Source: an uncultured Thermus sp.
GTDB lineage: Bacteria; Deinococcota; Deinococci; Deinococcales; Thermaceae
Assembly: GCA_947085095.1 (NCBI GenBank)
Contig: CAMTVD010000018.1
Location: forward strand, 59,074-123,073
Length of the DNA: 64,000 bases
Direction of reading: 5' to 3'
Shown here in pieces: positions 1,420-62,857 of the stretch (its first letter is position 1; every line of letters begins with the position of its first letter). The position numbers and the translations under genes are program-made. The notes beneath the pieces are model-generated. The model had not been told where the DNA came from and ran no database searches. It saw only the letters and a program-made list of their open reading frames with translations.

Positions 1420-3776
1420 AGTCTGAGCCCAGATTCCTGCAAAAGGCCCTGCTGGCCCTCCGCTTCCTGGGCCCGGAGGGGACCCGGCGGGCCCTTTTCT
1501 ACGCTCTTTTGCGGGACTACTGGAACCGCATGCAACCTGCGCCGCAGGGCCCCTGGCGTGGCGTGGGGCCGCCCCAGGCCATGGTGGCCATCCCCGGGGG
1601 AGGGCGCTTCCTCTTCCCCGAGGGGGAGCTGGAGGCAGTTTTCCTAGAGGGGGGGCTCCGCCTCACCTGGACCCCGGGCCGCCTCCCACCCCCTTACGCC
1701 ATAGAGAAAGCCCCTGCCCTCCTGGAGCCTGAACGGGAGGAGGGCGGGGGGCGCTTCGCCCTGGCGGCGGGGGGCGTCCGCCTCGAGGTGGGGCCGGAGG
1801 GCCTCCTCTTCCTGGACGAAGGGGGCCGGGTGTGGCGGCGGGAGGCCCTGCCCGAGCGCCAAGGGGAGGCCTGGCGGCACCGGGTGGACCTGGCCCCGGG
1901 GGAGCGGCTTTACGGTCTTGGGGCGGTGGCGGCCCCTCTGGACCGCCGGGGGCGGAGCTACCGCCTCTGGAACCGGGATGTGGGGGGGAGTTACGGCCCG
2001 GATGAGGGCCCCCTGTACCTCACCATCCCCTCGCTCCTTTCCCGCAAGCCTGGGGGCGGGTACCTGGTCTTCTACGAGAACCCCCACGAGGCCTTTTTGG
2101 ACCTGAGCGGCGATGTGGGCCTGGTGGCCTTTTCCGGCGGGGCTCTGAGGTACTACCTCTTTCCCGGGGGGCCCAAGGAGGCCCTGGCCGCCTACACTGC
2201 CCTCACGGGCAGGCCGCCCCTCCCGCCCCGCTTTGCCTTGGGCCTCCACTTCGCCCGCTGGGGGCTTAGGACGGAGGAGGAGGCGCGGGAGGTGGTGGAG
2301 GGGTTTTTCGCCCACGACCTCCCCCTCTCCGCCCTGCACCTGGACATAGACTACATGGACGGCTACCGGGTCTTCACCGTGGACCGGAGGCGTTTCCCCC
2401 ATCTGGAGGGGCTGGTGCGGGACCTGGAGGGGCGGGGGGTGCGCACGGTCCTCATCCTGGACCCCGGGGTCAAGGCCGAGGCGGGCTTTCCCCCCTTTGA
2501 GGCGGGCCTGAAGGAGGGGGTCTTCTGCACCCTTCCCGGGGGCCGCCTCCTGAAGGCCCCGGTGTGGCCGGGGTGGTGCGCCTTCCCCGACTTCACCAGC
2601 CCCAAGGCCCGGGCCTGGTGGGGCGAGCGGTGCGGGGAGCTCCTCGCCCTGGGCGTTCACGGCTTCTGGCTGGACATGAACGAGCCCGCCGCCTTCGCCG
2701 CCTGGGGGGACCCCACCCTTCCGGGCCCCACCCGGCACGCCCTCGAGGGCCAGGAGGGGGACCACCGCGAGGCCCACAACCTCTACGGCCTCCTCATGGC
2801 CCGGGCCACCCACGAGGCCCTGCGGGCGCGGGGCGTGGCCCGCCCCTTCCTCTTCTCCCGCTCCGGCTTTGCGGGCCTGGCCCGCTACGCCTGGAACTGG
2901 ACGGGGGACGTGGAGAGCAGCTGGGAGGCCCTTCGGCGCACGGTGGGCATCGTCCTGGGGCTTGGGCTTTCCGGGGTGCCCTACACGGGCTCGGACATCG
3001 GGGGCTTCAGCGGCCACCCCTCCCCGGAGCTTTTCCTTCGCTGGTTCCAGGCCGCGGCCTTCATGCCCTTCTTCCGCCTCCACTCCGCCATCTCCACCCC
3101 CAGGCGGGAGCCCTGGCGCTTCGGCGAGCCCGTGGTTTCCGTTCTCCGAAACTTTTTGCGGCTCCGCCACGCCCTCATCCCCTACCTCTACACCCTGGCC
3201 TGGGAGGCCCGGGAGAAGGGCTATCCCCTGGTCCGCCCCCTCTTCTTCTTGGACCCGGAAAGGGAAGCGGAGGACGCCTTTCTCCTGGGGGAGGACCTTT
3301 TGGTGGCCCCGGTGGTGGAGGAAGGGGCCCGCCACCGCCTGGTGCCCCTGCCCAAGGGTCTCTGGTACGAGTTCTGGAGCGACCGGCTGGTGGAGGGGCC
3401 CGGGGAGGTATGGGCCGAGGCGCCCCTAGAGCGCATCCCCATCTTTGTGCGGGCGGGCGCCGCCTTGCCCCTGGTGGAGGGGGAGGGCCTGGTCCTCCAC
3501 CTCTACCCGGGGCCTGAGGGCCGGGCCGAAGGAAGCCTCTACTGGGACGAGGGGGATGGGGAGGGGCCCTCCCGGCTGGACCGCTTCCTCCTGGAGGGGG
3601 GGCGGCTCCTGTGGCAGGGGGAGGGGGATTACCCCTGGCCCTGGGAGGGGCTAGGGCTTCGCCTGCACGGGGCTGGGCTCAAGGGGGGAAGGGTGGGGGA
3701 TGCGGTCTACCCCGCCGAGGAGGGGGTTCTCTGGCTTCCCCCCTTCCGCGAGGTCCTTTTGGAGGTGGAGGGATGA
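1416..3776 (+). CDS. Glycoside hydrolase family 31, alpha-glucosidase-like
   Basis: GH31 motifs HLDIDYMDG, nucleophile region WLDMNEP, WTGD, GSDIGGF, PFFRLHS. Confidence 0.9.
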   Translation: MKSEPRFLQKALLALRFLGPEGTRRALFYALLRDYWNRMQPAPQGPWRGVGPPQAMVAIPGGGRFLFPEGELEAVFLEGGLRLTWTPGRLPPPYAIEKAPALLEPEREEGGGRFALAAGGVRLEVGPEGLLFLDEGGRVWRREALPERQGEAWRHRVDLAPGERLYGLGAVAAPLDRRGRSYRLWNRDVGGSYGPDEGPLYLTIPSLLSRKPGGGYLVFYENPHEAFLDLSGDVGLVAFSGGALRYYLFPGGPKEALAAYTALTGRPPLPPRFALGLHFARWGLRTEEEAREVVEGFFAHDLPLSALHLDIDYMDGYRVFTVDRRRFPHLEGLVRDLEGRGVRTVLILDPGVKAEAGFPPFEAGLKEGVFCTLPGGRLLKAPVWPGWCAFPDFTSPKARAWWGERCGELLALGVHGFWLDMNEPAAFAAWGDPTLPGPTRHALEGQEGDHREAHNLYGLLMARATHEALRARGVARPFLFSRSGFAGLARYAWNWTGDVESSWEALRRTVGIVLGLGLSGVPYTGSDIGGFSGHPSPELFLRWFQAAAFMPFFRLHSAISTPRREPWRFGEPVVSVLRNFLRLRHALIPYLYTLAWEAREKGYPLVRPLFFLDPEREAEDAFLLGEDLLVAPVVEEGARHRLVPLPKGLWYEFWSDRLVEGPGEVWAEAPLERIPIFVRAGAALPLVEGEGLVLHLYPGPEGRAEGSLYWDEGDGEGPSRLDRFLLEGGRLLWQGEGDYPWPWEGLGLRLHGAGLKGGRVGDAVYPAEEGVLWLPPFREVLLEVEG

Positions 3777-5821: not shown

Positions 5822-5863
5822 CCTGGGGCGTGGACCGGGCCCGGAGCCCATAAAGGGGAAAGA

Positions 5864-9811: not shown

Positions 9812-11339
9812 TGGACCGGGAAGCCCTCTGGGCAAGGCTCAAGGAGCCCTTTGACCTCCTCATCCTCGGCGGGGGGGCCACGGGGGCCGGGGTGCTTTGG
9901 GAGGCCACCTTAAGGGGGCTCAAGGCGGCCTTGGTGGAGGCGGGAGACTTTGCCTCAGGGACGAGCTCCCGGAGCACCAAGCTCCTCCACGGGGGGGTGC
10001 GCTACTTGGAGCTGGCGGTGAAGCGCCTGGACCGCCGCCAGTTCAAGCTGGTGCGGGAGGCCTTGGCGGAGCGCAAGGTGGTTCTGGACCTTGCCCCCCA
10101 CCTGGCCCGGCCCCTCACCCTCATCACCCCCCTCTTCCGCCCGCTGGAGATCCCCTACTACTGGGCGGGCCTCAAGCTCTACGACCTCCTGGCGGGGAAG
10201 AGGTGCCTCGGCCCTAGCCGCTACCTTCCCCCGGAGGCGGTGCGGGACCTCTTCCCCGACCTGCCCAGGACCCTGGGGGGCGTGGCCTACCAGGACGGCC
10301 AGTTTGAGGACTTCCGCCTGAACCTGGCCTTGGTCCTCTCCGCCCTGGACCGGGGGGCGGTGGCCCTGAACCACGCCGAGGCCAAGGCCCTTCTCCTGGA
10401 GGGGGGCCAGGTGCGGGGGGCGGTGGTGGAGGACCGCCTCACGGGAAAGGAGGTGGAGGTCCACGCCAAGGCGGTGGTGAACGCCACCGGCCCTCTGGCC
10501 GACGGGGTGCGCCGCCTTTTGGACCCCCACCTCCCCCCCCTCCTCACCCCCTCCAGCGGGGCCCACCTGGTCCTGGACTACCCCCTGAAGGCGGGCCTCC
10601 TCATCCCCAGGACCCAAGACGGCCGGGTCCTCTTCCTCCTGCCCTACCGGGGAATGGCCCTCCTGGGCACCACGGACCTCCCCGCCGAGCCCGGGCCCTG
10701 CCCCCTTCCCCGGGAGGAGGAGGTGGCCTACCTCCTTCAGGAGATCCGCCCCTACCTGGGGGACCTCGCCTCCCGGGTGCGGGCCTCCTGGTCGGGCCTG
10801 AGGCCCCTGGTGGGGAAGGGGGAGACCAGGCTTTTGGTGCGGGACCACTACATAGAGGCCAGGCAGGGGCTCTACACCCTGGTGGGGGGGAAGTGGACCA
10901 CCTTCCGCCTCATGGCCCTGGACCTGGTGGAGCGGGTGGCCCGGGACCTGGGCCTTTTCCTACCCCCTTCCGCCTCCCACACCACTCCCCTCCTGGGGGC
11001 GGGCCCCCGGCCTCCCCTGGACCTTTCCGGGGAGGTGGCCCAGCACCTCTACGCCACCTACGGGGCCCTGGCCCTCGAGGTGGCCTCCCTGGGGGATAGG
11101 CCCCTCCTCCCGGGGCTTCCCTACCTGGAGGGGGAGGTGCGTTGGGGGGTACGGCACGAGCTGGCCCAAAAACCCCTGGACATCCTGGCCCGGAGGATGG
11201 GGCTAGCCTTCCTGGACCGGGAGAAGGCCCTTCTGGCCCTGCCCCGGGTGGTGGAGCTCATGGCCCCCCTCCTGGGCTGGAACGAGGGGCGGAAGGCGGC
11301 GGAGCTGGAGGAGGCCAGGAGGGCCCTCCCTGGGCTTTG

Positions 11340-11343
<4 letters not shown>
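9811..11343 (+). CDS. glpD: FAD-dependent glycerol-3-phosphate dehydrogenase
   Basis: [43 protein letters not shown]; start overlaps the glpK stop (GTGATG). Confidence 0.93.
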
Positions 11344-13184
<1,841 letters not shown>

Positions 13185-13257
13185 CGTCTACCTCCCTTGT
13201 CCTATGGTAGCGCCTTCCCGGTGAGAGGACTGAGGGGTGTGGTATCCTTTAGCGGCG

Positions 13258-14610
13258 ATGAAGGGGGTCCTCGAGGCCCTGCACCAAGGGGATTACGACA
13301 CCGCCATAGAGCGCCTCACCCGCAAGGCCCTCTTCGGCCGCAAAGAGGAGGCCCGGGAGGCCCTGCTCCTCCTGGCCGAGGTGCACAGCCTTTATGGGGA
13401 AGAGGGTCTGGAGAAGGCCCACCGGGCCCTGGAGGAGGCCTATGAGCTGGGGGAGCTGGAGTATAACCCCCTTTACCGGGCTTTGTTGGGGGAGCTTCTC
13501 GCCCTCGAGGGGCGTTCGGAGCGGGAGGTCCTCCCCCTTTTCCTGCCCACGGAGGACCCTAGGGCCCGCTACCACCAGGCCCAGGCCCTCTCCTATCTGG
13601 GGAAGTTTGAGGAGGCGTTGCAGGCCCTGAAGCCGGGGCTTCCTGCCTTTTTGGCCTGGCGGGCGGAGGGGCTTAGGGGGCGGGCCCTGGAGCGGCTTGG
13701 CCGCCACCGGGAGGCGGCCTTGGCCTACGAGGGGGGGGCGGGAATCGCCTTGGGGGTGGAGCGGTACTGGCTCCTCTTGGACGCCGCCGCCATGTGGCTG
13801 GAGGCGGGGGAGGGGGAGCGGGCCCTTTTGGCCCTCGAGGAGGCCGAGGCCACGGTGGAGGAGGAGAGCGCCGAGGACGCCGCCACCCGCCACTACCTCT
13901 TAGCCCGGGCCCACCTCCTCCTGGGCAACCCCAACCGGGCCCTGGAGGAGGCGAGAAGGGCCCTGGAGAAGGAGGAGGAAAGCGGCCACCAGGCCTACGG
14001 CACCCCTATGGTGGCGGGCCAGGCCCTTCTGCAACTGGGGCGCTACCCAGAGGCCATGGAGGCCTACCGGGAAGCCCTCCGGCGGGCGGAGGCGGCGGAG
14101 CGCCCCTACGTCCTCCACGAGATGGCGGTGGCGGCCCTGGACCAGGCGGCCTATCTGGAGGCGGAAGGCTACCTGCGGGAGCTTCTGCACGGGGAGGGCT
14201 ACCCCTACCGGGCCCAGGCCCTGGCGGACCTGGCGGAGGCCCTCTACCGCCAGGGGCGGTACGGGGAAGCGGAGGCGATGGCCCGGGAAGCCATGCGCCT
14301 GGGGGCGGAGGCCTCGGGAGAGCTCATCCTGGGCCACATCGCCTACGATCTCATGCACCTGGAGGAGGCCCTGGCCCACTACCGCCTGGCGGCGGAGCAG
14401 GCCGAGGAGGGAAGCCGGGAGTGGGTGGGGGCGCAGGAGATGGTGGTGGACACCCTGGCCCAGCTGGGCTACCGCTCCCCCGAGGAGATCCTGGCCCGCA
14501 CCGAGGCCGTTTTGCCCCACGTCCACCCCGCGGACGAGTGGCACCAGGCCCTCCTCGCCTACCGCGAGCGGGCTCTGGCCCTCCTGCGCGAGGGGAGGCG
14601 GCCTAACTAG
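13258..14610 (+). CDS. Tetratricopeptide-repeat protein
   Basis: Repeated helical A/L/E-rich TPR-like units (LG.Y.EA..AY..AL); start taken at ATG 13258. Confidence 0.75.
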   Translation: MKGVLEALHQGDYDTAIERLTRKALFGRKEEAREALLLLAEVHSLYGEEGLEKAHRALEEAYELGELEYNPLYRALLGELLALEGRSEREVLPLFLPTEDPRARYHQAQALSYLGKFEEALQALKPGLPAFLAWRAEGLRGRALERLGRHREAALAYEGGAGIALGVERYWLLLDAAAMWLEAGEGERALLALEEAEATVEEESAEDAATRHYLLARAHLLLGNPNRALEEARRALEKEEESGHQAYGTPMVAGQALLQLGRYPEAMEAYREALRRAEAAERPYVLHEMAVAALDQAAYLEAEGYLRELLHGEGYPYRAQALADLAEALYRQGRYGEAEAMAREAMRLGAEASGELILGHIAYDLMHLEEALAHYRLAAEQAEEGSREWVGAQEMVVDTLAQLGYRSPEEILARTEAVLPHVHPADEWHQALLAYRERALALLREGRRPN

Positions 14611-15640
14611 CCCCTTTGCGCAGGGGGAAAAGGGCCTTGAGCACCTCCTGGACCCTGAGGGGTTTGGGCAGGTGGAGGACCCGGAGGGGCCTAAAGAGGA
14701 GGCCAGGGGGGGTTTCGCTCACCAGGTAGAGGGAGGCCAGCCTGCCCTCGGGATGGCCCCGCACCCTCCTGGCCGCCTCCAAGGCCTTTTCCCCCTGGAG
14801 GACGATGCCTTTGGGCCTCTCCTTGAGAAGCCGCAGGAGCCCTTCCAGATCCCGGGGCAGGAGGACCCGGAAGCGGTGGGCTTCCAACAGGTAGAGGAGA
14901 AGCCGGCGCACCACCCCGCTTTCCGCCAGGACCAGGATCAGGGGGTCCTCCGCCAGCAGGGTGGAGGGGCGGACCAGCCCCCGGCTTTTCAGCTCGTGGA
15001 GGAGGTGGTAGACCTCCTCCTCGGGAAGGCCGGAGAGGAGGGCCACGCTCCTGGCCCGCCTGACCCCGTCCAGGAGCTCCAGCACCGTCCAGGCCTCGGG
15101 GGAGAGGGGATGGCGGGTGGGGTCCTCCACCAGGTGGAGGACCTCGTCCGGGTCCACCTGCCCTCTCCGCCACTCGTCCAGGCGCCGGGCGGCCTCCATG
15201 AGGGCCCAGTCCGTGTCCAGGGTCTGGGGGAGGGCCACCTGGCTCCCTTCCTCTAAGGGCTCGGCCAAGACCTCCCCTTCCTTCTCCCCCAAGAGGGTGG
15301 CCAGGGCCTCCAGCACCTGGGCTTTTAGGGCCTCCAAGAGCTCCTCCTCCCCAATGAGGCCCAGCTCCAGGGCCAAGGCCCCTAAGGGGGTCCCGGGGTT
15401 TTCCCGGTCCTGGCGCTCCACCAGGGTCTGGACCTCCTCCAGGCTCAGGTGCCCGAGGCGCACCAGATACTCCCCCAGGTGGGGGCCGGGCTCGGTGCGG
15501 GCGTAGAGGATGCGTCCCCCAAGGAGGTGGACCCGGCCGTAGATCCGGCCCCGGAAGCTCACCACGGCGCTCTTGCGGCTCCCGGCCAGGGCTTTCAGGA
15601 GCTCTCCCAGGTCCAACTCCACGAGCGAGGCCCGGATCAT
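14603..15640 (-). CDS. DUF4388 (PatA-N-like) protein with a C-terminal pseudo-receiver domain
   Basis: L.ELLKAL...[28 protein letters not shown]; the C-terminal ILVLAES...LPKP resembles a receiver fold without the acidic pocket. Confidence 0.7.
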
Positions 15641-16608: not shown

Positions 16609-16638
16609 GGCCACGCCTTCACATGATAGCCTTTTCCC

Positions 16639-17432: not shown

Positions 17433-18347
17433 GTGGTGCGCTTTCGTAGGGAGGGCCTGCGCCTGGACCAGGCGGTGGCCGAGGCCCTGGGGGTGAGCCG
17501 GGCCCGGGCCCAGGCCTGGATCGCCCAGGGCCGGGTCCGGGTGGGGGAGAAGGTGGTGCAGAGGCCCGCTTACCGCCTGAAGGGGGAGGAGGTGGCGGTG
17601 GAGCCCCCTGAGGAGCGCCCCCTGGTGGTGCCCGAGGACCTTTCCCTTCCCGTCCTCTACGAAGACGAGGACCTCCTGGTCCTCAACAAGCCCCCGGGCC
17701 TCCTCACCCACCCCGCTCCCGGGGTTTACACGGGCACCGTGGTCAACGCCCTTCTGGGCCGCTACTACGAGCCCGAGGCCGCGGAGCGCCCGGAGCTCGT
17801 CCGCCCCGGCATCGTCCACCGCCTGGACAAGGACACCAGCGGGGTCCTGGTGGTGGCCAAGCACGGGGGGGCCCTCGAGGCCCTCTCCCAGGCCTTCCGT
17901 GACCGCCTGGTGATGAAGCGCTACCTGGCCCTCACCGAGGGGCACCCCAAGGAGGGTACCCTCATCGCCCCCATCGGCCGCCACCCGGTGGAAAGGCACA
18001 GGATGCACGTGGGGGGGATCGCCCCCAGGTACGCCGAAACCCACTTCCAGATCCTGGCCACCTCTGGCCCCCACGCCCTGGTGGAGGCCCGGCCCCACAC
18101 CGGGCGCACCCACCAGATCCGGGTCCACCTCAAGCACCTCAAGGCCCCCATCCTGGGGGACGAGGTCTACGGCAGGAAGAGCCCCCAGATCGCCCGCCAA
18201 GCTCTCCACGCCTACGAGCTCCGCCTTCCCCACCCCCGCACCGGGAAGCTCCTGGAGTTCCAGGCCCCCGTGCCCCAGGACATGGTCCGGGCCTGGGAGG
18301 CCCTGGGAGGGGTGTGGCCGGAGGGGATCGCCTTAGAGGGGGTATAA
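17433..18347 (+). CDS. rluD: RluA/RluD-family 23S rRNA pseudouridine synthase
   Basis: N-terminal S4 domain (RLDQAVA...SRARAQ), [29 protein letters not shown]. Confidence 0.88.
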
Positions 18348-18355
18348 TCCCGGAA

Positions 18356-19228
18356 ATGGAAGCCTCCGTGGCCCTGCGTGCACCCTTGGATGCGGCCTCG
18401 CCCTCCCATCCCCCCGTCCGCCTCCACGTGGGGGATGCCCGGGAGGTCCTTTCCCGTCTCCCCGAGGCCTCCGTCCACCTGGCGGTCACCTCGCCCCCCT
18501 ACTGGACCCTGAAGCGCTACGAGGACCACCCCGGCCAGCTCGGCCACGTGGAGGACTACGAGGCCTTTTTGAACGAGCTGGACAAGGTCTGGCGGGAGGT
18601 CTACCGCCTCCTGGTGCCCGGGGGGCGGCTCGTCATCGTGGTGGGGGATGTGGCTGTGGCCCGGAAGCGCTTCGGGCGGCACCTGGTCTTTCCCCTCCAC
18701 GCCGACATCCAGGTGCGGTGCCGCAGGCTTGGCTTTGACAACCTGAACCCCATCATCTGGCACAAGCACACCAACGCCAGCCTCGAGGCCGACCGCCCCG
18801 GCTTCTTCCTGGGCAAGCCCTACGAGCCCGGGGCCATCGTCAAAACGGAGATAGAGTACATCCTCATGCAACGGAAGCCTGGGGGGTACCGCAAGCCCAC
18901 CCCCGAGCAGCGGGAGAAGAGCCGCATCCCCAAGGAGGACTTTGCCCGCTTCTTCCGCCAGATCTGGGACGACCTTCCCGGGGAGAGCACCAAGACCCAC
19001 CCCGCCCCCTTCCCCCTGGAGCTGGCCGAGAGGCTGGTGCGCATGTTCAGCTTCGTGGGGGACGTGGTCTTAGACCCCTTCGCCGGTACCGGCACCACCC
19101 TGCTGGCGGCCCTCAAGTGGGGAAGGGAGGCCGTAGGGGTGGAGCTCGTCCCCAAGTACGCCGAGCTGGCCAAAAAGCGCTTCGCCAGGGAGCTTCCGGG
19201 GGCGACGCTGGAGGTGGTGGGAGGTTAG
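18356..19228 (+). CDS. Amino (N4-C or N6-A) DNA methyltransferase, beta class
   Basis: Motif IV VTSPPY precedes HPAPFP and motif I VLDPFAGTGTT (beta order); SPPY is typical of N4-cytosine enzymes. Confidence 0.9.
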   Translation: MEASVALRAPLDAASPSHPPVRLHVGDAREVLSRLPEASVHLAVTSPPYWTLKRYEDHPGQLGHVEDYEAFLNELDKVWREVYRLLVPGGRLVIVVGDVAVARKRFGRHLVFPLHADIQVRCRRLGFDNLNPIIWHKHTNASLEADRPGFFLGKPYEPGAIVKTEIEYILMQRKPGGYRKPTPEQREKSRIPKEDFARFFRQIWDDLPGESTKTHPAPFPLELAERLVRMFSFVGDVVLDPFAGTGTTLLAALKWGREAVGVELVPKYAELAKKRFARELPGATLEVVGG

Positions 19229-19230
19229 CC

Positions 19231-19902
19231 GTGGACCCCGCCCTTTTGGCCTCGGAACTAGAGGGCATCCTGAGGCGGGTTGCGGCCGCTTCCCAGCAGG
19301 ATAGTGGCCGGCAAAACCCCCTGGCGGACTACCTCTTGCGGCGCCTGCGCCTCCGCCTTCCCGCTTCCCTCCATCCTCACCTCAAGCGGGAGGTGCAGGT
19401 GCCGGGTCTGGCCAGGCTCAAGTCCTGGGACCTGGGCCTGGTCTACCCGGAGGGCCCCGTCAGGAAACCCCGGCTTCTCCTATCCCTAAAGTCCATCCTG
19501 AAAAACCCCTCGGGTTCCTGGCCTAATCGGCTGGACGACCTGGTGGGCGAGGTCTCCTCCGTGCAGATGCTTTTCCCGGAGGTGGTGGTGGGTTACGTGG
19601 TGGTTCTGGACTACGGTGCCCCCACCAAGCGGAAGGGGGGGTACAAAAGGCCTGTGGGGGACGAGCTAAAGCCCCTCTACGCCCGCTTTGTCCGGGGTCT
19701 GGAGGCTCTTTCTAGAAGACGCCCCCCCCTCTGGGCCCAGGGGTTGGTGGAGGGGCACTGGGCGATTTCCGTGGACAGCCGGAAGGAGGCCCTCCTCCTG
19801 GAGCCCGAGACTACGGTGAGGGCGGGCGAGGCCTTCTTGGACGCCTTGGTGGAGGCCTTGCGGGAGCGGGAGCCTTTGCTGTTCGTGGACGAGCAAGGCT
19901 GA
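19231..19902 (+). CDS. Putative type II restriction endonuclease, PD-(D/E)xK fold, XhoI/PaeR7I-like
   Basis: Starts 2 nt after the MTase stop; KSWDLGL...LLSLKS...NRLDD..GE resembles the K.WD..E.KS...NR.EE pattern of that family. Confidence 0.55.
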   Translation: MDPALLASELEGILRRVAAASQQDSGRQNPLADYLLRRLRLRLPASLHPHLKREVQVPGLARLKSWDLGLVYPEGPVRKPRLLLSLKSILKNPSGSWPNRLDDLVGEVSSVQMLFPEVVVGYVVVLDYGAPTKRKGGYKRPVGDELKPLYARFVRGLEALSRRRPPLWAQGLVEGHWAISVDSRKEALLLEPETTVRAGEAFLDALVEALREREPLLFVDEQG

Positions 19903-21609: not shown

Positions 21610-22566
21610 ATGGAAGCCTTGGAGCTCCTGCGCTTGAACCTCCTTTCCCCCATGGTCCTGGCCTTCTTCCTGGGGGTGGCGGCCCGGCTTCTAAGAAGCG
21701 ACCTGGCCTTTCCCGAGGCCATGTACACGGCCCTTTCCATCTACCTCCTCTTGGCCATCGGCTTCAAGGGAGGGGTGGAGCTTTCCAAAACGCCCCTGGG
21801 GCTTCTCCTCCTGCCCGCCCTGGCCACCCTCTCTCTGGGGCTCATCCGGCCCCTTTCCGGCTACCTCCTGGCCCGGCGCTTCCTGGGGGTGGGGCGGGCG
21901 GACGCTGGGGCCTTGGCGGCCCACTACGGCTCGGTCTCCGCGGTCACCTTCCTGGCCGCCCTCACCTTTGTCCAGGCGGTGGGCGGGCGTCCGGAAGGGT
22001 TCATGCCCACCCTGGTAGCCCTCCTGGAGGTGCCGGGGATCGTCCTGGCCCTGGTCTTGGCCAAACGGGGGAGCGGGAGTGTGGGGGAGGCCACGCGGGA
22101 GGTGCTTACCGGCAAGAGCGTGGTCCTCCTCCTGGGGGGGCTTTCCATCGGGGCCCTTTCGGGGGAGGCGGGGATGGAGCGGGTGAAGCCCTTCTTCGTG
22201 GACCCCTTCTACGGGGCCCTCACCCTTTTCCTGCTGGATCTGGGGATGGTGGCGGCCTCGAGGCTCGCTACCCTGCGCCAGGTGGGTTTTCGCCTGGTCC
22301 TCTACGGGGTGGGCCTGGCCCTCGTCCACGGGGCCTTCGGGGTCTACCTGGGCCACCTGGTGGGGCTTTCCGTGGGCGGGGCCACGGTCTTGGGGGCCAT
22401 GGCGGCCAGCGCCAGCTACATCGCCGCCCCGGCGGCGGTGCGCATCGCCCTGCCCGAGGCCAACCCCAGCCTGTATCTGGCTGCCAGCCTGGCGGTTACC
22501 TTTCCCTTTAACCTGGTCTTGGGCATCCCCATCTACCACGCCTTGGCCCAGTGGATCGGGGGGTGA
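21610..22566 (+). CDS. sbtA: Sodium-dependent bicarbonate transport family permease (SbtA-like)
   Basis: About 10 TM segments; YLLLAIGFKGG, AAHYGSVSAVTF, ASASYIAAPAA, SLAVTFPFN. Confidence 0.85.
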   Translation: MEALELLRLNLLSPMVLAFFLGVAARLLRSDLAFPEAMYTALSIYLLLAIGFKGGVELSKTPLGLLLLPALATLSLGLIRPLSGYLLARRFLGVGRADAGALAAHYGSVSAVTFLAALTFVQAVGGRPEGFMPTLVALLEVPGIVLALVLAKRGSGSVGEATREVLTGKSVVLLLGGLSIGALSGEAGMERVKPFFVDPFYGALTLFLLDLGMVAASRLATLRQVGFRLVLYGVGLALVHGAFGVYLGHLVGLSVGGATVLGAMAASASYIAAPAAVRIALPEANPSLYLAASLAVTFPFNLVLGIPIYHALAQWIGG

Positions 22567-29070: not shown

Positions 29071-30120
29071 ATGAAAGAGACCCCGCTTTACCAGGCCCAC
29101 TTGCGCCACGGGGGGCGTATGGTGGAGTTCGCGGGCTACGCCCTTCCCCTCCAGTACACCTCCATCGTGGAGGAGCACCTGGCCGTGCGCCAGGGCGCCG
29201 GCCTCTTTGATGTGAGCCACATGGGGGAGTTCCTCATCCAGGGCCCCGAGGCCCTGGCCTTTCTCCAGTGGGCCACGGTGAACGACGCCGGGAAGCTGAA
29301 GGTGGGCCGGGCCCACTACTCCATGCTTCCCAATGAGCGGGGCGGCGTGGTGGACGACATCTACCTCTACCGCCTGGGGGAGGAGGCCTTCCTGATGGTG
29401 GTCAACGCCGCCAACATCGCCAAGGACTTCGCCCACCTTAGCGCCTTGGCCCAGGGCTTCCGGGTGGAGCTAAGGGACCTTTCCCAGGCCACCGCCCTCC
29501 TGGCCCTCCAAGGACCCAAGGCGGCCCAGGTGCTCCAGGGCCTCACCGGGGTGGACCTCTCCTCCCGCAAGAAGAACGACGTCTTTGAGGCGGAGGTGGC
29601 GGGCAGGCCCGCCCGCCTGGCCCGCACCGGGTACACGGGGGAGGACGGGTTTGAGATCTTCCTCGCCCCTGAGGACGCCGAGGCGGTCTTTGAGGCCCTT
29701 TTGGCGGCGGGGGCCAGGCCCTGTGGCCTTGGGGCCCGGGACACCCTGAGGCTCGAGGCGGGCTTTCCCCTCTACGGCCACGAGCTCACCGAGGCCACCA
29801 ACCCCCTCTGCACCCCCTGGGCCTGGGTGGTGAAGAAGGAGAAGGACTTCTTGGGCAAGGAGGCCATGCTTTCCGGGGTGTGCCAGGAGAAGCTTGTGGG
29901 CCTGGTCCTGGAGACGGGCATCCCCCGGGAGGGGTACAGGGTCCTCTCCGGGGAGCGCCCCGTGGGCCGGGTGACCAGCGGGGGCTACTCCCCCCTTCTG
30001 GAGAAGGGCATCGCCCTGGCCTATGTGGCAAAGGAGGCCGAGGGCCCCTTCCATGTGGAGGTGCGGGGGCGGGCGGTCCCCGCTTCCCTCAGCCCTTTGC
30101 CCTTTGTGCCGCTAAAATAG
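29071..30120 (+). CDS. gcvT: Glycine cleavage T protein (aminomethyltransferase)
   Basis: LFDVSHMG, ARTGYTGEDGFE, GLGARDTLRLEAG. Confidence 0.96.
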   Translation: MKETPLYQAHLRHGGRMVEFAGYALPLQYTSIVEEHLAVRQGAGLFDVSHMGEFLIQGPEALAFLQWATVNDAGKLKVGRAHYSMLPNERGGVVDDIYLYRLGEEAFLMVVNAANIAKDFAHLSALAQGFRVELRDLSQATALLALQGPKAAQVLQGLTGVDLSSRKKNDVFEAEVAGRPARLARTGYTGEDGFEIFLAPEDAEAVFEALLAAGARPCGLGARDTLRLEAGFPLYGHELTEATNPLCTPWAWVVKKEKDFLGKEAMLSGVCQEKLVGLVLETGIPREGYRVLSGERPVGRVTSGGYSPLLEKGIALAYVAKEAEGPFHVEVRGRAVPASLSPLPFVPLK

Positions 30121-41138: not shown

Positions 41139-42251
41139 CTAGAGAGAGTTCAGGGTAGCCAGGAGCACCTGGCGGGTGTACGTGGGGTTATGCACCCCCT
41201 TGGAGCGGTCGTTCTGGATGAGGAGGTAGTTCCAGGCGGCCCGCACCACCGGGTCCTTGGTGGGGAAGACGGGCTGGCCCTTCTCGTCCCGGATGTCCGC
41301 CAGCTGGCTGTACAGCTCGCTCCCGTCCGTGAGGGTCATCTTGAAGGCGACCTGCCCGGCGATGGAGAGGATGTCCACCCGGTACACCGGGGCCCTCACC
41401 GCCACGTTGGGGGTGAACTGGCCGTTTTCTGGGTTGTAGGCCCGTACGGTCTTGATGCGGTCCCGCACCGCCAGCACCCGGGCGTTCACCTTGACCCGGA
41501 CCAGGGAGAGGAGGTGGTCGGTGTTCTCCTGGACCATCTCCTTGGTGTACTTGGCCCCGTGGCAGGAGGAGCAGAGGTTCTCCGGCGTCTTGAAGGTGTG
41601 GCTCGTGTACTCCCCGGTGCCTGCCAGGCTCATGTGGCAGGTGGAGCAGGCGCTGCCCGTGAAGAAGGCGTGGGGGTTGGGCCACTCCCGGGTGTCGTCC
41701 ACGAAGTAGGCGTTCTTGCCCAGGAGCACGTCCCCCTGGCTCGAGGCGTGGGGAGAGGTGTAGCGGCCCGGGTCCTCCGCATTCCAGGTGATGCGGCCGT
41801 TACGGGTGTTGTGACAGGCGATGCAGAGGGCGGCGCTCCCCACCGCCGTGGCCTTGAAGCCAGCGGGGAGCATGGGGGTGTCGTGGACCAGGCGCAGGTC
41901 CCCGTCCTCGTCGTGGCAGGCCTTGCAGGTGATGGGCTTCACCTGGTCGCGGGTAAGGCCCAAGCCCCTCAGGTAATCCACGGTGGCCGGTCTGCCGTCG
42001 GGACCCACCAGGTTGCCGGGATTCCCCTTCTTGAGCTGGTCCAGCCAGGCCAAAAAGCCCTGCTCGCTGTGGCAGCGGGCACAGTGGGCCGCCCCTTCGC
42101 CCCGGGCTTCCACCGTGGCCACGGTCAGGGTCTTGGCCCCCATGTCGCGGTTGTTGTGGCCGCTTCGCTCCCACTCCCGCTGCATGGCCTCCTTGCTGGA
42201 GAAGGCCACCATGAGGCCAAGGGCTAGGAGGGCCAGTACCGCTTTCTTCAT
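41139..42251 (-). CDS. Exported pentaheme cytochrome c (NrfA/OcwA-like core)
   Basis: Signal peptide MKKAVLALLALGLMVAFS; five CxxCH motifs (CARCH, CKACH, CIACH, CSTCH, CSSCH); C-terminal AAWNY...D.S.GVHNP.Y. Confidence 0.85.
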   Translation of the reverse strand: MKKAVLALLALGLMVAFSSKEAMQREWERSGHNNRDMGAKTLTVATVEARGEGAAHCARCHSEQGFLAWLDQLKKGNPGNLVGPDGRPATVDYLRGLGLTRDQVKPITCKACHDEDGDLRLVHDTPMLPAGFKATAVGSAALCIACHNTRNGRITWNAEDPGRYTSPHASSQGDVLLGKNAYFVDDTREWPNPHAFFTGSACSTCHMSLAGTGEYTSHTFKTPENLCSSCHGAKYTKEMVQENTDHLLSLVRVKVNARVLAVRDRIKTVRAYNPENGQFTPNVAVRAPVYRVDILSIAGQVAFKMTLTDGSELYSQLADIRDEKGQPVFPTKDPVVRAAWNYLLIQNDRSKGVHNPTYTRQVLLATLNSL

Positions 42252-44223: not shown

Positions 44224-45571
<1,348 letters not shown>

Positions 45572-53427: not shown

Positions 53428-53428
53428 C

Positions 53429-53839: not shown

Positions 53840-53848
53840 AGGAGGAGT

Positions 53849-56260: not shown

Positions 56261-56264
56261 GCTC

Positions 56265-56690: not shown

Positions 56691-56697
56691 GGGCCCA

Positions 56698-58020: not shown

Positions 58021-58070
58021 CCACCCTAAGCCTAGCCCCCGGGGGTGGGCTTTGCTAGAGTGCGGGAAGG

Positions 58071-59039
58071 ATGTGGGTCTTGGGCATAGATACCTCCTGT
58101 GATGACACTGGGGTGGGTCTGGTAAAGGACGGCCAGGTGGTGGTGAACCTGGTCCTGAGCCAGACCCTCCACGAGGCCTATGGGGGCGTGGTGCCCGAGT
58201 TCGCCAGCCGGGAGCACCTCAAGGCCCTTCCCCGCCTCACCCAAGAAGCCTTGGGCAGGGGGGGAATCGCCCCTAAGGACCTCTCCCTCATCGCCGCCAC
58301 CCGGGGGCCCGGCCTGATCGGGGCCCTTCTGGTGGGCTACACCTTCGCCAAGGGCCTGGCCTGGGCCCTGGAGAGGCCCTTCTACGCCATTCACCACCTC
58401 GAGGGCCACATCGCCGCCGCCTGGCCCGAGGGCCTAGAGCCCCCCTTCCTGGCCCTGGTGGCCTCGGGGGGGCACACCCACCTCTACGAGGTCCTGGACC
58501 TGGGGAACTACCGCCTCCTGGGGGCCACCCGGGACGACGCCGCCGGGGAGGCCTTTGACAAGGTGGCGAGGCTTTTAGGCCTTGGCTTCCCCGGGGGGCC
58601 GGAGATTGAGCGCCTGGCCAAGGAGGCGGAGGAGCCTGTCCCCTTCCCCGTCCCCCTGAAGGACCAGGCCGGGTACGAGTTCAGCTTCTCCGGCCTGAAA
58701 ACGAGGGCCCTGCAGCTTGTGGAAAAGGGCCTTCCCAGGCCAGGGCTCGCCAGGGGCTTCCAGGAGGCGGCCATCGGGCACCTGGCCGAGGTGGTCCTGA
58801 GGGCGGCCCGGGACACGGGGCACCGGGTCCTCCTGGTGGCCGGGGGGGTGGCGGCCAACCAGGCCCTCCAGGCGCGCTTTAAGGCGGCGGGGATTGAGGT
58901 CCACTTCCCCCCCAGGGGCCTTTCCCAGGACAACGGGGCCATGATCGCCCTGGCCGCCTGGCGGCGCTTTAGGGCGGGCTTTCCCCCAAGCCCCCTTTCC
59001 TTGGGGGCCACCGCCTACTGGCCCCTCGAGGCCGTCTGA
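58071..59039 (+). CDS. tsaD: tRNA t6A threonylcarbamoyltransferase
   Basis: [46 protein letters not shown]. Confidence 0.96.
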
Positions 59040-59077
59040 ACGCTTTCTCATCCCGAGGGGGTACAATCGGCCTTAGG

Positions 59078-62077
59078 ATGCTGGGCCTCATACGGAAGCT
59101 TTTTGACAACAACGAGCGGGAGATTGCCCGCTACCACAAGCAGGTGGTGGAGCCCACCAACCGCCTCGAGGCGGAGGTGGAGAAGATCCAAGACCTGTCC
59201 GCCGCCTACCGCGAGCTCAAGGAGAAGCACGAAAGAGGCGCCAGCCTGGAGGAGCTTCTCCCCATGGCCTTCGCCCTCACCCGGGAGTCCGCCAAGCGCT
59301 ACCTGGGCATGCGCCACTTTGACGTGCAGCTCATTGGCGGGGCCGTGCTCCACGAGGGCAAGATCGCCGAGATGAAGACCGGGGAGGGGAAGACCCTGGT
59401 GGCCACCCTGGCCGTGGCCCTCAACGCCCTCACCGGCAAGGGCGTGCACGTGGTCACGGTGAACGACTACCTGGCCCGGCGGGACGCCGAGTGGATGGGG
59501 CCCGTCTACCGGGGCCTGGGTCTTAGCGTGGGGGTCATCCAGCACAGCTCCACCCCCGAGGAGCGCCGCAAAGCCTACCTCTGCGACGTCACCTACATCA
59601 CCAACTCCGAGCTGGGCTTTGACTACCTCCGGGACAACATGGCCATCAGCCCCGACCAGTTGGTCCTGCGCCACGACACCCCCCTCCACTACGCCATCAT
59701 TGACGAGGTGGACTCCATCCTCATCGACGAGGCCCGCACCCCTTTGATCATCTCCGGCCCGGCGGAGAAGGCCACGGACCTCTACTACAAGATGGCGGAG
59801 ATCGCCAAGAAGCTGGAGCGAGGCCTTCCCCCGGAGCCCGGAGTGCGCAAGGAGCCCACGGGGGACTACACCATTGAGGAGAAGAACCGCTCCGTCCACC
59901 TCACCCTCCAGGGGATCGCCAAGGCGGAAAAGCTTTTGGGGGTGGAGGGGCTCTTTAGCCCGGAGAACATGGAGCTCGCCCACATGCTGATCCAGGCCAT
60001 AAGGGCCAAGGAGCTCTACCACCGGGACCGGGACTACATCGTCCAAGATGGCCAGGTCATCATCGTGGACGAGTTCACGGGCCGCCTCATGCCGGGCAGG
60101 CGCTACGGGGAGGGCCTCCACCAGGCCATAGAGGCCAAGGAGGGGGTGAGGATTGAGCGGGAGAACCAGACCCTGGCCACCGTCACCTACCAGAACTTCT
60201 TCCGCCTCTACGAGAAGCGGGCGGGGATGACGGGCACCGCCAAGACCGAGGAGAAGGAGTTCCAGGAGATCTACGGCATGGACGTGGTGGTGGTGCCCAC
60301 CAACCGCCCCATGATCCGCCAGGACTTCCCCGACGTGGTCTACCGCACGGAGAAGGGGAAGTTCTACGCGGTGGTGGAGGAGATCGCCGAGAAGTACGAG
60401 CGGGGCCAGCCCGTTTTGGTGGGCACCATCAGCATTGAGAAGTCGGAGAGGCTCTCCCAGATGCTCAAGGAGCCCAGGCTCTACTTCCCCCGGCTGGAGA
60501 TGCGCCTGGAGCTCTTTAAAAAGGCCAGCGCCAAGCAAAGCGGGGAGGCCTGGGAGCGCCTGAGGAAGCTTCTGGAAAAACCCACCCAGCTCAAGGACCA
60601 AGACCTCGCCCCCTTTGAGGACCTCATCCCCCAGAAGGGGAACCTGCGGAGCGCCTGGGAGGGCCTGAAGCGGGCGGTGCACACCCTTTCCATCCTGCGC
60701 CAGGGCATCCCCCACCAGGTCCTGAACGCCAAGCACCACGCCAAGGAGGCGGAGATCGTGGCCCAGGCGGGCCGCTCCAAGACCATCACCATCGCCACCA
60801 ACATGGCGGGCCGGGGGACGGACATCAAGCTGGGGGGGAACCCCGAGTACCTGGCCGCCGCCCTCCTGGAGAAGGAGGGGTTTGACCGCTACGAGTGGAA
60901 GGTGGAGCTCTTCATCAAGAAGATGGTGGCGGGGCATGAGGAGGAGGCCCGGGCCCTAGCCCAGGAGCTTGGGGTAAAGGAGGAGCTCCTGGAGAGGATC
61001 CGCCAGATCCGGGAGGAGTGCAGGGCCGACGAGGAGCGGGTGCGGAGCCTGGGGGGGCTTTTCATCCTGGGCACCGAGCGGCACGAGTCCCGGCGCATCG
61101 ACAACCAGCTCCGGGGCCGCGCGGGCCGCCAGGGGGACCCCGGGGGGAGCCGCTTCTACGTCTCCTTTGACGACGACCTCATGCGCCTCTTCGCCTCGGA
61201 CCGGGTCATCGCCATGCTGGACCGCATGGGCTTTGACGACTCCGAGCCCATAGAGCACCCCATGGTGAGCCGCTCCATAGAGCGGGCGCAGAAGCGGGTG
61301 GAGGATCGGAACTTCGCCATCCGCAAGCAGCTTTTGCAGTTTGACGACGTGATGGCCCGGCAGCGGGAGGTCATCTACGCCCAGCGCCGGCTGATCCTCC
61401 TGGGAAAGGACGAGGAGGTGAAGGAGGCGGCCCTTGGGATGGTGGAGGAGACCGTGGCCTCGGTGGCGGAGAACTTCTTGAACCCCCAGATCCATCCCGA
61501 GGACTGGGACCTTCAGGGCCTGAGGACCGCTCTCCTGGACGTGGCCCCCCAGCTTTCGGGCTTCTCCTTTGAGGAGCTTAGGGGACTGAAGCCAGAGGAG
61601 GGGGTGGAGCGCCTGGTGGAGGCGGCCCTCAAGGCCTACGAGGCCCGGGAAGAGGAGCTCTCCCCGCCCCTCATGCGGGCGGTGGAGCGGTTTGTGATCC
61701 TCAACGTGGTGGACTCCGCCTGGAAGGAGCACCTCCACAACCTGGACGTGCTCCGGCAGGGCATCTTCCTAAGGGGCTACGGCCAGAGGGACCCTTTCCA
61801 GGAGTACAAGATTGAGGCCACCCGCCTTTTCAACGACATGGTGACCTTCATCAAGTCCGAGGTGGCCAAGTTCCTCTTCCGCCTCAAGGTGGAGGCCGAG
61901 CCCGTGCGGCCCGTGCGGGAGGCCCCTTATGTGCCCGTGCCCGAGCCCAGGCCGGAGGAGGCGGGGACCTTCGGCGTGGAAAGGAAGCGCCCTGCCACCC
62001 CCCCGCCCCAGCCCGGGCTTTCCCGGGCGGAGCGCCGCCGCCTCATGCGGGAGGAGAAGAAGCGCAAGAAGGAGTAG
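59078..62077 (+). CDS. secA: Preprotein translocase ATPase SecA
   Basis: [68 protein letters not shown]. Confidence 0.98.
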
Positions 62078-62090
62078 GCCCCCCGGGGTC

Positions 62091-62116
62091 CCCATCCTGG
62101 CGCAAGCCAGGATGGG
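62091..62116. terminator. Hairpin between convergent secA and yebC
   Basis: 11-bp stem CCCATCCTGGC-GCAA-GCCAGGATGGG with a GNRA loop. Confidence 0.7.
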
Positions 62117-62122
62117 ATGGTA

Positions 62123-62857
62123 TTAGGCCTCCACCTGGAGGCTTGCGGGGTCCAGGTTGGTGTAGACGTTCTGCACGTCGTCCAGGTCCTCGAGGGCCTC
62201 CACCAGGCGCATGACCTTGGCCGCCTCCTCGGGAGCGAGGGCCACCACGTTCTGCGGGTGTTGCGTCACCTCCGTGGCCTCTACCCGGATCCCTCGGCGC
62301 TTCAGCGCCTCGGCGATGCGGTAGACCTCGGCGGGCTCGGTGTAGACGGTGAGGCTATCCCCCTCCTCCTCCAGGTCCAGGGCCCCCAGCTCAATGGCGG
62401 CCTCCTGGGCGGCCTCGGTGTTCTCAGAGACGATGACCCCCCGCTTCTCAAACTGCCAGGCCACGCTGCCTGAGGTGCCCAAGGAGCCCCCGTACTTGCT
62501 GAAGACGTGGCGCACCTCCCCGGCGGTGCGGTTGCGGTTGTCGCTGAGGGCGTAGACCAAGACAGCCACACCCCCCGGGGCATACCCCTCGTAGACGATC
62601 TCCTCGTACTGCTCGGCGCCCTCCCCGCCCCCTTGGAGCTTCTGCAGGAGGCGGTCAATGTTTTCCATGGGCACATCGTCGGCCCGGGCGGCCTCAATGG
62701 CGTTCCTGAGCTGCACGTTGGCCTCGGGGTAGGGGCTTCCCCCCGCCCTGGCGGCCGCCTGGATGGCCCTGAGGTGCTTGGAGATGATCTTGCCGCGCTT
62801 CAGGTCGTTGGCGGCTTTCTTGCGCTTGATCTGGGCCCACTTGCTATGACCGGCCAT
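62123..62857 (-). CDS. yebC: YebC/PmpR-family protein
   Basis: MAGHSKW..IK.KK, YEGY.PGG, DNRNRT, LEDLDDVQNVY.N. Confidence 0.95.
   Translation of the reverse strand: MAGHSKWAQIKRKKAANDLKRGKIISKHLRAIQAAARAGGSPYPEANVQLRNAIEAARADDVPMENIDRLLQKLQGGGEGAEQYEEIVYEGYAPGGVAVLVYALSDNRNRTAGEVRHVFSKYGGSLGTSGSVAWQFEKRGVIVSENTEAAQEAAIELGALDLEEEGDSLTVYTEPAEVYRIAEALKRRGIRVEATEVTQHPQNVVALAPEEAAKVMRLVEALEDLDDVQNVYTNLDPASLQVEA

Follow-up and report, generated by a model that had tools for sequence, protein, structure and literature searches.

A palindromic octamer spared by a genus-wide purge of TCGA in Thermus, with copies that keep their distance from one another

The 64,000-nucleotide stretch of an uncultured Thermus sp. 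analyzed here (the window, G000:C18:59074-123073) belongs to a draft genome, G000, of 2,076,267 bp in 41 contigs, with a GC content of 67.5% and a completeness of 93%. Most TCGA tetramers of the window lie inside a single palindromic octamer, CCTCGAGG. TCGA is the site of TaqI and TthHB8I, which cut T^CGA, the corresponding modification being TCG-m6A (m6A, N6-methyladenine). We found that TCGA has been purged throughout the genus by synonymous codon choice and that the exemption from this purge is exactly 8 bp wide. The octamer is the surviving subset of an older abundance of CTC-GAG (CTCGAG) at Leu-Glu codon pairs that is common to all relatives, and its copies repel each other over distances of up to about 500 bp, whether or not a gene boundary lies between them, which is a new finding. 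The explanation that we favor, and to which we give an even chance of being right, is a restriction-driven TCGA purge that spares a word protected by a resident methyltransferase, with the survivors held at a regulated density.

An earlier reading of the window made from its letters (the sequence-only reading) had estimated by eye about 50 octamers, about four copies of a variant keeping one flank, and only two other TCGA, both in secA. Motif matching returned 51 octamers, including all seven positions that the reading had cited, compared with 4.7 ± 2.0 (maximum 10) in dinucleotide-preserving shuffles, none of 100 of which reached 51. The window holds 57 TCGA, while the same shuffles gave 127 ± 11 and all 100 of them at least 57. 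These 57 sites consist of the 51 octamers, four GCTCGAGG and two CATCGAC (TCGA at 59724 and 61098), and both of the latter lie inside an open reading frame (ORF) at 59078-62077 that scores as SecA. The TTTGAG that had been read at position 841 as TTT GAG is likewise present. The sites in the window are as follows.

1781..62195, no strand assigned: palindrome CCTCGAGG, 51 copies, motif match compared with shuffles
CCTCGAGG starts, copies 1-17: 1781, 2741, 3874, 4495, 5227, 5896, 11073, 13269, 13503, 13833, 15843, 17136, 17873, 18781, 20307, 21484, 22256
CCTCGAGG starts, copies 18-34: 24313, 24809, 24842, 26144, 27833, 28385, 31261, 32517, 33219, 37742, 38319, 38409, 38547, 39083, 39887, 40406, 43125
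CCTCGAGG starts, copies 35-51: 44004, 46033, 47734, 49723, 51021, 53115, 53235, 53812, 54460, 55228, 56730, 57582, 57831, 58397, 59024, 59164, 62188
11957..11964 (+ strand), 29751-29758, 41739-41746 and 45353-45360: GCTCGAGG, one-flank variant of the octamer, TCGA at 11959, 29753, 41741 and 45355
59722..59729, + strand: CATCGACG, TCGA outside CTCGAG, in secA, one of only two in the window
61096..61103, + strand: CATCGACA, the second TCGA of the window outside CTCGAG, in secA

The scarcity of TCGA outside the octamer extends to the whole genome, where 1576 of 1932 TCGA sit in CCTCGAGG, 108 in the one-flank variants GCTCGAGG/CCTCGAGC and 248 elsewhere. Analogues written with CTG number 2036 for the octamer and 1592 for the one-flank variants, and relative to these analogues the tolerance of TCGA falls, by our arithmetic, from 1 (both flanks) to 0.066 (one flank) and 0.013 (no flank). 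With 759 copies per Mb, roughly one for each gene, CCTCGAGG is the most abundant palindromic 8-mer of G000, the next being CCCCGGGG with 812 sites, and it is 19 times as frequent as expected at zero order and about 10 times at Markov orders 1-3. Beyond the 8 bp, no flanking position is conserved except for codon periodicity. Contig C41 (8.6 kb) alone contributes 36 of the 248 remaining TCGA. This contig has a GC content of 55% compared with 67.5% for the genome, 36 TCGA, no octamer and an HsdM-type methyltransferase gene, and it looks like foreign, plasmid or contaminant DNA that escaped the purge.

Codon context shows how TCGA is evaded and where it is tolerated. In a crude gene set of 1683 ORFs chosen on GC3 (83% of G000 covered), 1371 octamers lie inside ORFs, and 1301 of these (95%) are in the frame xxC-CTC-GAG-Gxx, encoding Leu-Glu. 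When the flanks are C and G, Leu before GAG is written CTC in 45% of cases (n = 2884), compared with 0-9% in the other 12 listed flank contexts (n at least 20), so that TCGA depletion at eligible Leu-Glu sites is not independent of the flanks. The CTC share is 0.00-0.01 before GAC, GAA and GAT, and 28% at most before any other G-starting codon in any flank. Evasion is not limited to Leu: Ile ATC makes up 95% before GCC and 3-4% before GAG/GAC, Phe TTC 88% before GCC and 1% before GA, and Val GTC likewise evades TCGA (0%), which bears out the unfavored codons noticed in the sequence-only reading. Within ORFs, octamers show a mild excess in the first 100 nt (62-68% versus about 50%), the ORF starts being approximate. 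Two further observations concern the same codons. Leu CTC reaches 70-80% before CTC/CTG and 4-16% before most G-starting codons, a junction effect unrelated to TCGA, and the codon preceding Leu-GAG-G ends in C far more often than in G (2884 versus 502 sites).

Within-gene synonymous codon shuffles gave 793 ± 25 octamers and 8161 TCGA, compared with 1371 and 1603 observed, and shuffles that also kept the junction of each codon with the next base gave 307 ± 10 octamers and 3376 TCGA. The octamer is thus enriched 1.7- to 4.5-fold and other TCGA depleted 13- to 32-fold, only 232 non-octamer TCGA being found in ORFs where the two nulls predict about 7368 or about 3069. Because the octamer exceeds both codon-shuffle nulls and TCGA falls below both, the enrichment and the purge are both real; the shuffle, which the sequence-only reading had proposed as the comparison that could undo its claim, left the octamer count far above expectation in either version. 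Two treatments of octamers outside genes were dropped, namely, a periodicity classifier separating coding from non-coding octamers, whose test 38% of random positions fail, and an inclusive ORF mask for intergenic octamers, which left coding-like stretches.

The Leu-Glu frame of nearly all coding octamers would also be expected from a translational preference for the CTC-GAG codon pair that involves no agent acting on DNA, and relatives do favor CTC before GAG (in the relative G031, 70%, compared with 28-49% before other G-starting codons). However, codon choice in G000 varies with the base just before the codon and with the first base of the next-but-one codon, and TCGA is avoided across Ile, Phe, Val and Leu before GA alike. 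Phages of different codon usage avoid TCGA too, and octamers repel each other even between different genes, as described below. We regard this preference as refuted as the sole cause and accord it only a marginal probability.

The pattern recurs across relatives, as the sequence-only reading had proposed to verify, and the octamer dominates SSTCGASS sites in every genome of the genus.

Same genus (g1), 32 genomes: 1241-2174 octamers per genome, octamer share of SSTCGASS 76-93%
Sister genus (g15), 2 genomes: 1556-2007 octamers per genome, octamer share of SSTCGASS 59-65%
g13 (69% complete), 1 genome: 1031 octamers, octamer share of SSTCGASS 55%
Three other genera of the family, 33 genomes: 598-3579 octamers per genome, octamer share of SSTCGASS 11-31%

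Codon context and density in relatives were obtained from 200-400 kb sampled from single genomes. In the unpurged relatives G031 and G054, CTC-GAG is used in 65-82% of Leu-Glu pairs in every flank, the CTCGAG hexamer is abundant, and Ile ATC is equally common before GA and GC, i.e., no purge is seen. Because CTC-GAG is preferred there in every flank, these genomes carry the octamer at the same density as Thermus, 68-92 per 100 kb compared with 76-88 per 100 kb in three Thermus genomes. The octamer has therefore survived the purge rather than been amplified. In the sister-genus genome G082, Ile ATC falls to 11% before GA versus 91% before GC, so TCGA is purged, while CTC-GAG stands at 33-49% in all four flank contexts, the whole hexamer CTCGAG being spared. 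G018, a close Thermus relative (G018:C4:1000001-1400000), tolerates ATCGAC and ATCGAG at about 11 per 100 kb each, compared with 1.5 in G000, and does not tolerate ATCGAT or ATCGAA; its Ile ATC share before GA is 35%, compared with 3% in G000. Such tolerance suggests that this lineage has an additional protecting activity of its own. Which word is spared thus depends on the lineage: CTCGAG in the sister genus, CCTCGAGG in Thermus, plus ATCGAS in one species. Outside the family, two genomes of the same order (G033 and G026) show strong depletion of the octamer (17 of 3353 and 10 of 1370 SSTCGASS sites, respectively), and CTCGAG is absent from the contexts listed for G026, as if XhoI- or AbsI-like restriction had acted in these lineages.

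The sequence-only reading had proposed that something protects or generates the octamer. Protection fits the flank dependence of CTC-GAG and the universal presence of the M.TaqI family described below; generation does not fit, the density being no higher than in unpurged relatives. One form of generation would be methyl-directed or very-short-patch repair that keeps creating CCTCGAGG from near-variants, which is reportedly Elhai's model for HIP1, the highly iterated palindrome (HIP) of cyanobacteria. The analogy with HIP1 and with CCWGG enrichment in Escherichia coli speaks for such repair, as does the excess of the octamer over codon-shuffle expectation. However, the 93% complete G000 yielded no match to Vsr (PF03852) or to C5-methyltransferases (PF00145), and the deamination neighbors CCTTGAGG/CCTCAAGG are abundant (939 sites). 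The exchanges through which octamers come and go are moreover mostly C-to-G and G-to-C transversions and are balanced, and the octamer is no denser than in relatives that did not undergo the purge. We therefore find repair a very improbable origin.

Spacing was assessed by shuffling, contig by contig, which sites count as octamer and which as CCTGGAGG/CCTCCAGG, and comparing the gaps between octamers. Octamers are more evenly spaced than these shuffles allow: the coefficient of variation of gaps is 0.81 versus 1.02 (z -8.7), gaps under 100 bp make up 2.1% versus 7.6%, and gaps under 300 bp 11.7% versus 21.9% (z -11.7). When only in-frame C-Leu-GAG-G sites were considered, 190 gaps were under 400 bp compared with 340 ± 12, and none of 500 permutations gave so few. 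The ratio of octamer pairs is 0.25-0.31 below 100 bp, 0.5-0.7 at 100-500 bp and close to 0.9 at distances up to 2 kb. No such repulsion was seen for six other synonymous 8-mer pairs (z for the coefficient of variation -0.8 to +3.1, strongest short-gap dip z -2.4), nor for ten further palindromic octamers, among them CCCCGGGG, which is all GC (775 sites). This last result disfavors hairpins or microhomology as the cause of the spacing, and avoidance of hairpins or cruciforms was rejected on the same ground.

At matched distances of 200-500 bp, the odds ratio for octamer pairs is 0.62 between genes (p 0.029) and 0.68 within genes; for pairs on opposite strands it is 0.59, with a small number of pairs and without significance. 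Since the effect is equal between and within genes at matched distance, the repulsion acts on DNA and not per transcript, and a cause at the level of the mRNA or of the single gene, at which an earlier unmatched comparison had hinted, was discarded. Repulsion was replicated in G018 (z -2.8 to -4.4) and in G015, which carries R.TaqI (z -3.8 and -4.2). For the hexamer in G082 the repulsion was fainter (z -2.6 and -3.2), and the 200-400 kb samples of the unpurged relatives G031 and G054 showed none. Gaps longer than three times the mean are also rare (2.8% versus 5.1% in the null). By our arithmetic, a hard-core exclusion of ~300 bp at fixed density predicts 2.7%, so this deficit is not separate evidence of positive selection. 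The probable oriC of G000 (G000:C14:22056-22273, adjoining dnaA) contains 13 DnaA-box-like 9-mers arranged in two inverted sets, with a one-flank variant, CCTCGAGC, between the sets at about 22181-22188. Clustering of octamers at the origin, by analogy with the CTCGAG clusters at the replication origin of Nocardia described in the part of PMC4752239 used here, was considered and rejected, as this oriC holds no octamer cluster and only those 13 sites and the one CCTCGAGC.

Individual octamers turn over at a near-neutral rate. Comparison of G000 with G018 (301 aligned ORFs, four-fold-site identity 0.78) showed 142 of 220 octamers kept, and the third base of CTC in the octamer was kept in 75% of cases versus 78% for all four-fold sites. 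Exchange between the octamer and CCTGGAGG was balanced in this comparison (26 losses, 33 gains), and none of the twelve commonest replacement words, which account for 101 of the 220 octamers, keeps TCGA. In the more distant G015 (four-fold identity 0.70), 84 of 214 octamers were kept. Because few sites are shared, yet both genomes hold 0.76-0.88 octamers per kb, density is maintained while positions drift.

This balanced flux would also be expected if the octamer were neutral and a modest flank preference of R.TaqI or M.TaqI were amplified by weak selection into an all-or-none pattern. The stepwise tolerance of TCGA with two, one or no flanks is what a graded kinetic risk would give, and the equilibrium is equal with and without R.TaqI. 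Neutral sites should not repel each other, however, and octamers do so, solely in purged lineages. In addition, some mobile elements avoid the octamer, and the spared word differs between sister genera with homologous enzymes. Neutrality of the octamer is thus improbable in our judgment, although less so than repair or codon-pair preference.

The purge is confined to the two genera carrying an M.TaqI-family methyltransferase. At E ≤ 1e-20, the family is found in 32 of 32 Thermus genomes, in both genomes of the sister genus and in none of the 34 other members of the family Thermaceae, a co-occurrence with methyltransferase content of the kind that the sequence-only reading had suggested looking for. 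Among the methyltransferase families compared across relatives, it is the only one present in all 32 Thermus genomes. The G000 orthologue is intact (PDB 2ibs match, E 1.8e-170, NPPY motif kept), and no R.TaqI was found in G000. R.TaqI (PF09573) occurs in 9 of the 32 Thermus genomes, always beside the methyltransferase, and in none of 36 genomes elsewhere in the family. A tree of 22 M.TaqI-family members resolved two clades: an orphan clade (support 97/94) with the two genes of the sister genus and eight Thermus genes, that of G000 included, and a second clade with all eight sampled R-linked genes and three that have lost R. R-linked proteins are identical in two species (G009 and G081), which indicates that the TaqI system has recently moved horizontally between members of the genus, and those of G015 and G077 are nearly identical. 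Orphan and R-linked clades share an identity of 0.61 in both protein domains, with 38 discriminating columns spread along the protein; a specificity switch in the recognition domain was considered, and none was seen. The locus of the G000 orphan (G000:C14:249236-252580) adjoins a 489-aa ORF that matches only the middle of the anti-phage DUF499 profile, and a 933-aa frame with a weak D12 methyltransferase match stands 6 kb away (C14:245042); this neighborhood may be a decayed defense island.

Two other methyltransferases of G000 were weighed as protectors. Besides the M.TaqI orthologue and the gene in the window, the genome encodes a beta-class methyltransferase adjoining a BglII-like nuclease, a methyltransferase-Mrr fusion, two HsdM-type genes, a 1443-aa Type IIG-like frame and a D12-class methyltransferase; a homologue 56% identical to a G000 enzyme is present in G031. 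The D12 (Dam-like) enzyme was rejected as protector, being present in 7 of 32 Thermus genomes only. The window itself contains a methyltransferase gene and an overlapping ORF.

18314..19228, + strand: beta-class N6/N4 DNA methyltransferase, 304 aa, TSPPY motif, orthologue of TTHA0409 (2zie, E 3.8e-164)
19117..19902, + strand: 261-aa ORF overlapping the 3' end of the TTHA0409-like methyltransferase gene, no family match

PDB entry 2zie is the solved structure of the Thermus thermophilus HB8 "putative modification methylase" TTHA0409. This gene was rejected as protector too: high-identity copies occur in only 17 of 24 Thermus genomes, with only distant matches in two and none found in five, and all 24 show the pattern. 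Outside the genus, it occurs in genomes with octamer shares of 0.5%, 6% and 27%. Copies 64-69% identical were observed in three genomes of other families. The 261-aa ORF, which gave no Pfam, NCBIfam or PDB sequence match, could be the endonuclease partner of this methyltransferase and is not part of the octamer story.

Relatives in the same family methylate the hexamer core of the octamer. According to the parts of Blow et al. 2016 (PMC4752239) used here, m6A Type II methyltransferases for CTCGAG are active in Marinithermus hydrothermalis, Meiothermus ruber and M. chliarophilus (table S3), and no cognate endonuclease is named for them. The gene of Marinithermus hydrothermalis is described as Eco57I-type (an Eco57I/TaqI-type gene) and that of M. 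chliarophilus as Type-I-like. Within the same parts, no CTCGAG methyltransferase is listed for M. silvanus and no Thermus is among the organisms studied. Marinithermus, Meiothermus and Thermus are all Thermaceae (NCBI taxonomy). These enzymes (M.Mhy14884I, M.Mru1279II and M.Mch9957IV) resemble the predicted Thermus activity in occurring in the same bacterial family and in the adenine concerned, with no endonuclease listed in that source, and their target is the core of the octamer, CTCGAG also being abundant in the sampled relatives. They differ in that their genomes neither purge other TCGA nor show even spacing, and in that at least two unrelated enzyme types are involved, judging by the gene descriptions of table S5 in the part of PMC4752239 used here.

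Mobile elements share the purge, TCGA expectations being calculated for them at zero order. Phage P23-45 has 41 TCGA versus 313 expected, the first 50 kb of phiYS40 have 29 versus 150, P23-77 has 3 versus 50 and IN93 has 4 versus 62; in P23-77 and IN93 together, six of the seven TCGA are octamers. Two small plasmids are host-like, with 25 octamers among 32 TCGA in pPS18 and 14 among 19 in pTMY. P23-45 and the small plasmids pTA16 and pAA3-7d together hold 3 octamers versus 41 CCTGGAGG-type candidate sites, compared with a host ratio of 1576 to 2036, although these numbers are small. Since some elements that move between strains avoid the octamer, it is probably not intrinsically immune or harmless. 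A cytosine methyltransferase is annotated on P23-45 (9937-11043) and on pPS18 (13505-14881), a C5-methyltransferase gene not having been found in G000.

In the explanation that we favor, recurrent restriction of the R.TaqI type would drive the purge. R.TaqI is present in 9 of 32 species representatives and is horizontally mobile, and every lineage would meet it at times. The spared word would be the context in which the TCGA adenine is methylated exclusively, or fastest, by the resident M.TaqI-family enzyme, and a word so methylated would be protected against an incoming restriction gene or a lapse of methylation. The spared context probably reports the specificity or preference of the resident methyltransferase. 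Because neighboring copies interact, the survivors would not be simply neutral, and two mechanisms could hold them at their density. Octamers might be m6A landmarks whose benefit diminishes with each further copy, about one in every 1 kb being enough for a role in repair, recombination or self-marking like that of HIP1 or of Dam/GATC. Alternatively, close copies might compete for a limiting protecting enzyme, each of them becoming riskier.

Several results weigh against this explanation. In genomes with R.TaqI, the only M.TaqI-family enzyme is the R-linked one, whose presumed target is every TCGA. The exemption is nevertheless the same there, and octamers are not fewer (by our arithmetic, a mean of 1811 in 9 genomes with R.TaqI versus 1657 in 23 without). 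An octamer-specific orphan enzyme is therefore not the whole story, unless the residence of the restriction-modification system is short-lived, and the DNA-recognition domain of the orphan and R-linked clades has not diverged more than the rest of the protein. The purge is also nearly as strong without R.TaqI (mean non-octamer SSTCGASS 256, versus 196 with it), which would require frequent gain and loss of R. The link between methyltransferase and purge across genera carries little statistical weight because it reflects one evolutionary event, and which TCGA are methylated in Thermus, the octamer included, is a prediction from sequence. Turnover shows only a weak trend toward compensation: octamers were lost in 56 of 81 cases with a nearby gain versus 74 of 133 without one in the comparison with G015, and in 14 of 29 versus 64 of 191 in that with G018, where one comparison of gain rates ran opposite to the expected direction.

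We also put forward tentatively, as possible but doubtful, a broader version in which the Leu-Glu codon pair serves Thermus and its relatives as the basis of a HIP-like landmark system. An ancient orphan adenine methyltransferase would mark CTCGAG, and the restriction-linked TaqI paralogue would have arisen from, or joined, that family and become a mobile selfish element. Under its pressure the genus would have recoded its codon usage, and the protected word would have narrowed from CTCGAG to CCTCGAGG. The m6A marks would then be kept at about one per kb by stabilizing selection, for the sake of some DNA transaction that requires a mark no more than a few hundred bases away. Mismatch repair (through the choice of strand), the recombination of transformed DNA and self-recognition are candidates.

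The even spacing and steady density could also arise if the octamer were bound or recognized by some non-methyltransferase factor, for instance one with a part in recombination, transformation or nucleoid organization, with positive selection that outweighs the TCGA purge. We consider this unlikely, though less so than a neutral octamer. A specificity of exactly 8 bp, with an 11-fold drop for the one-flank variant, suits a binding site, as do the ~500 bp range of the spacing, which holds between genes as well, and the constancy of density while most octamers are not shared with G015. HIP1, moreover, has recently been linked to transformation efficiency, according to the parts of 10.1101/2024.09.10.611283 and of PMC13756078 used here. 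However, the CC..GG flank is not preferred in unpurged relatives (CTC in 75% of cases versus 65-80% in other flanks of G031), so such a factor would need to have arisen in Thermus itself, with another one, reading the hexamer, in the sister genus; and no candidate protein was identified. To our knowledge, DNA uptake in Thermus is reported to be sequence-independent, which also counts against such a factor. Cutting at octamers during transjugation was set aside, since the published model, in the part of PMC7767461 used here, relies on a different enzyme, TthHB27I.

Among the closest known parallels is HIP1 (GCGATCGC), to which the sequence-only reading had rightly likened the octamer. Both are palindromic octamers present at hundreds to thousands of copies per Mb, 759 here and 300-2700 for HIP1 according to the part of Elhai (PMC4390886) used here. 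HIP1 contains the target of a clade-wide orphan N6-adenine methyltransferase (GATC), the Thermus octamer is predicted to contain one (TCGA), and both are mostly intragenic and non-randomly placed along the chromosome. In contrast to HIP1, the inner tetramer TCGA is nearly absent outside the Thermus octamer, and the zero-order observed-to-expected ratio is 19 rather than 55-228. Single Thermus sites are not conserved beyond neutral expectation, whereas HIP1 sites are, as stated in the part of Xu et al. 2018 (PMC5861425) used here. The spatial signal, assessed at short range in this draft of 41 contigs, is a repulsion within about 500 bp, while that of HIP1 is a periodicity of 10-90 kb, and the Thermus octamer descends from a hexamer-level abundance in relatives. 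The octamer pattern in Thermus was not found described in the full-text literature searched, although most subscription journals and REBASE lay outside the search and prior notice is possible; the parts of the HIP papers PMC13756078 and PMC4390886 used here do not describe it either.

Classical avoidance of its own site by TaqI shares with our results the depletion of the site in hosts and phages through synonymous changes and the presence of the cognate genes in the lineage. It differs in being uniform across flanks, where an 8-bp context (6-bp in the other lineage) is exempt here, and genomes left with the methyltransferase alone are purged almost as thoroughly. Dam/GATC of enterobacteria and CcrM/GANTC of alphaproteobacteria are orphan methyltransferases whose sites shaped genome composition. 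Like the Thermus case, they combine a clade-conserved orphan adenine methyltransferase with a non-random number and placement of sites; unlike it, neither is known to show near-total removal of the site with one extended word exempt. We know of no reader protein such as MutH or SeqA in Thermus. Dcm/Vsr shapes CCWGG and CTAG genome-wide in E. coli and is likewise a methyltransferase-linked change of oligonucleotide abundance, but no Vsr or C5-methyltransferase gene was found in G000 and the substitution pattern does not fit. DNA uptake sequences (DUS/USS) serve sequence-specific uptake and are oriented, non-palindromic and often located in terminators; the octamer is palindromic and has 95% of its coding copies in one frame. 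An uptake or recombination signal, one of the options named in the sequence-only reading, is conceivable for it.

These results show that restriction avoidance can be context-specific. As the spared context probably reflects the resident methyltransferase, methyltransferase specificities might be readable from sequence alone. For practical work, mapping TaqI or XhoI sites in Thermus DNA gives nearly identical results, and codon optimization for Thermus should obey the rule of avoiding TCGA outside the octamer. M.TaqI and R.TaqI are among the best characterized enzymes of biochemistry. The steps are visible in living relatives, from unpurged genomes rich in the hexamer, through a purge that spares the hexamer, to a purge that spares only the octamer. 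HIP1 has gone unexplained for 30 years, partly as a lone case in one phylum, and the Thermus octamer offers a second HIP case in an unrelated thermophile that is amenable to genetics and competent by nature. If its copies are indeed methylated landmarks, Thermus would provide a second, independent and experimentally tractable instance of the HIP1 phenomenon, with living evolutionary intermediates.

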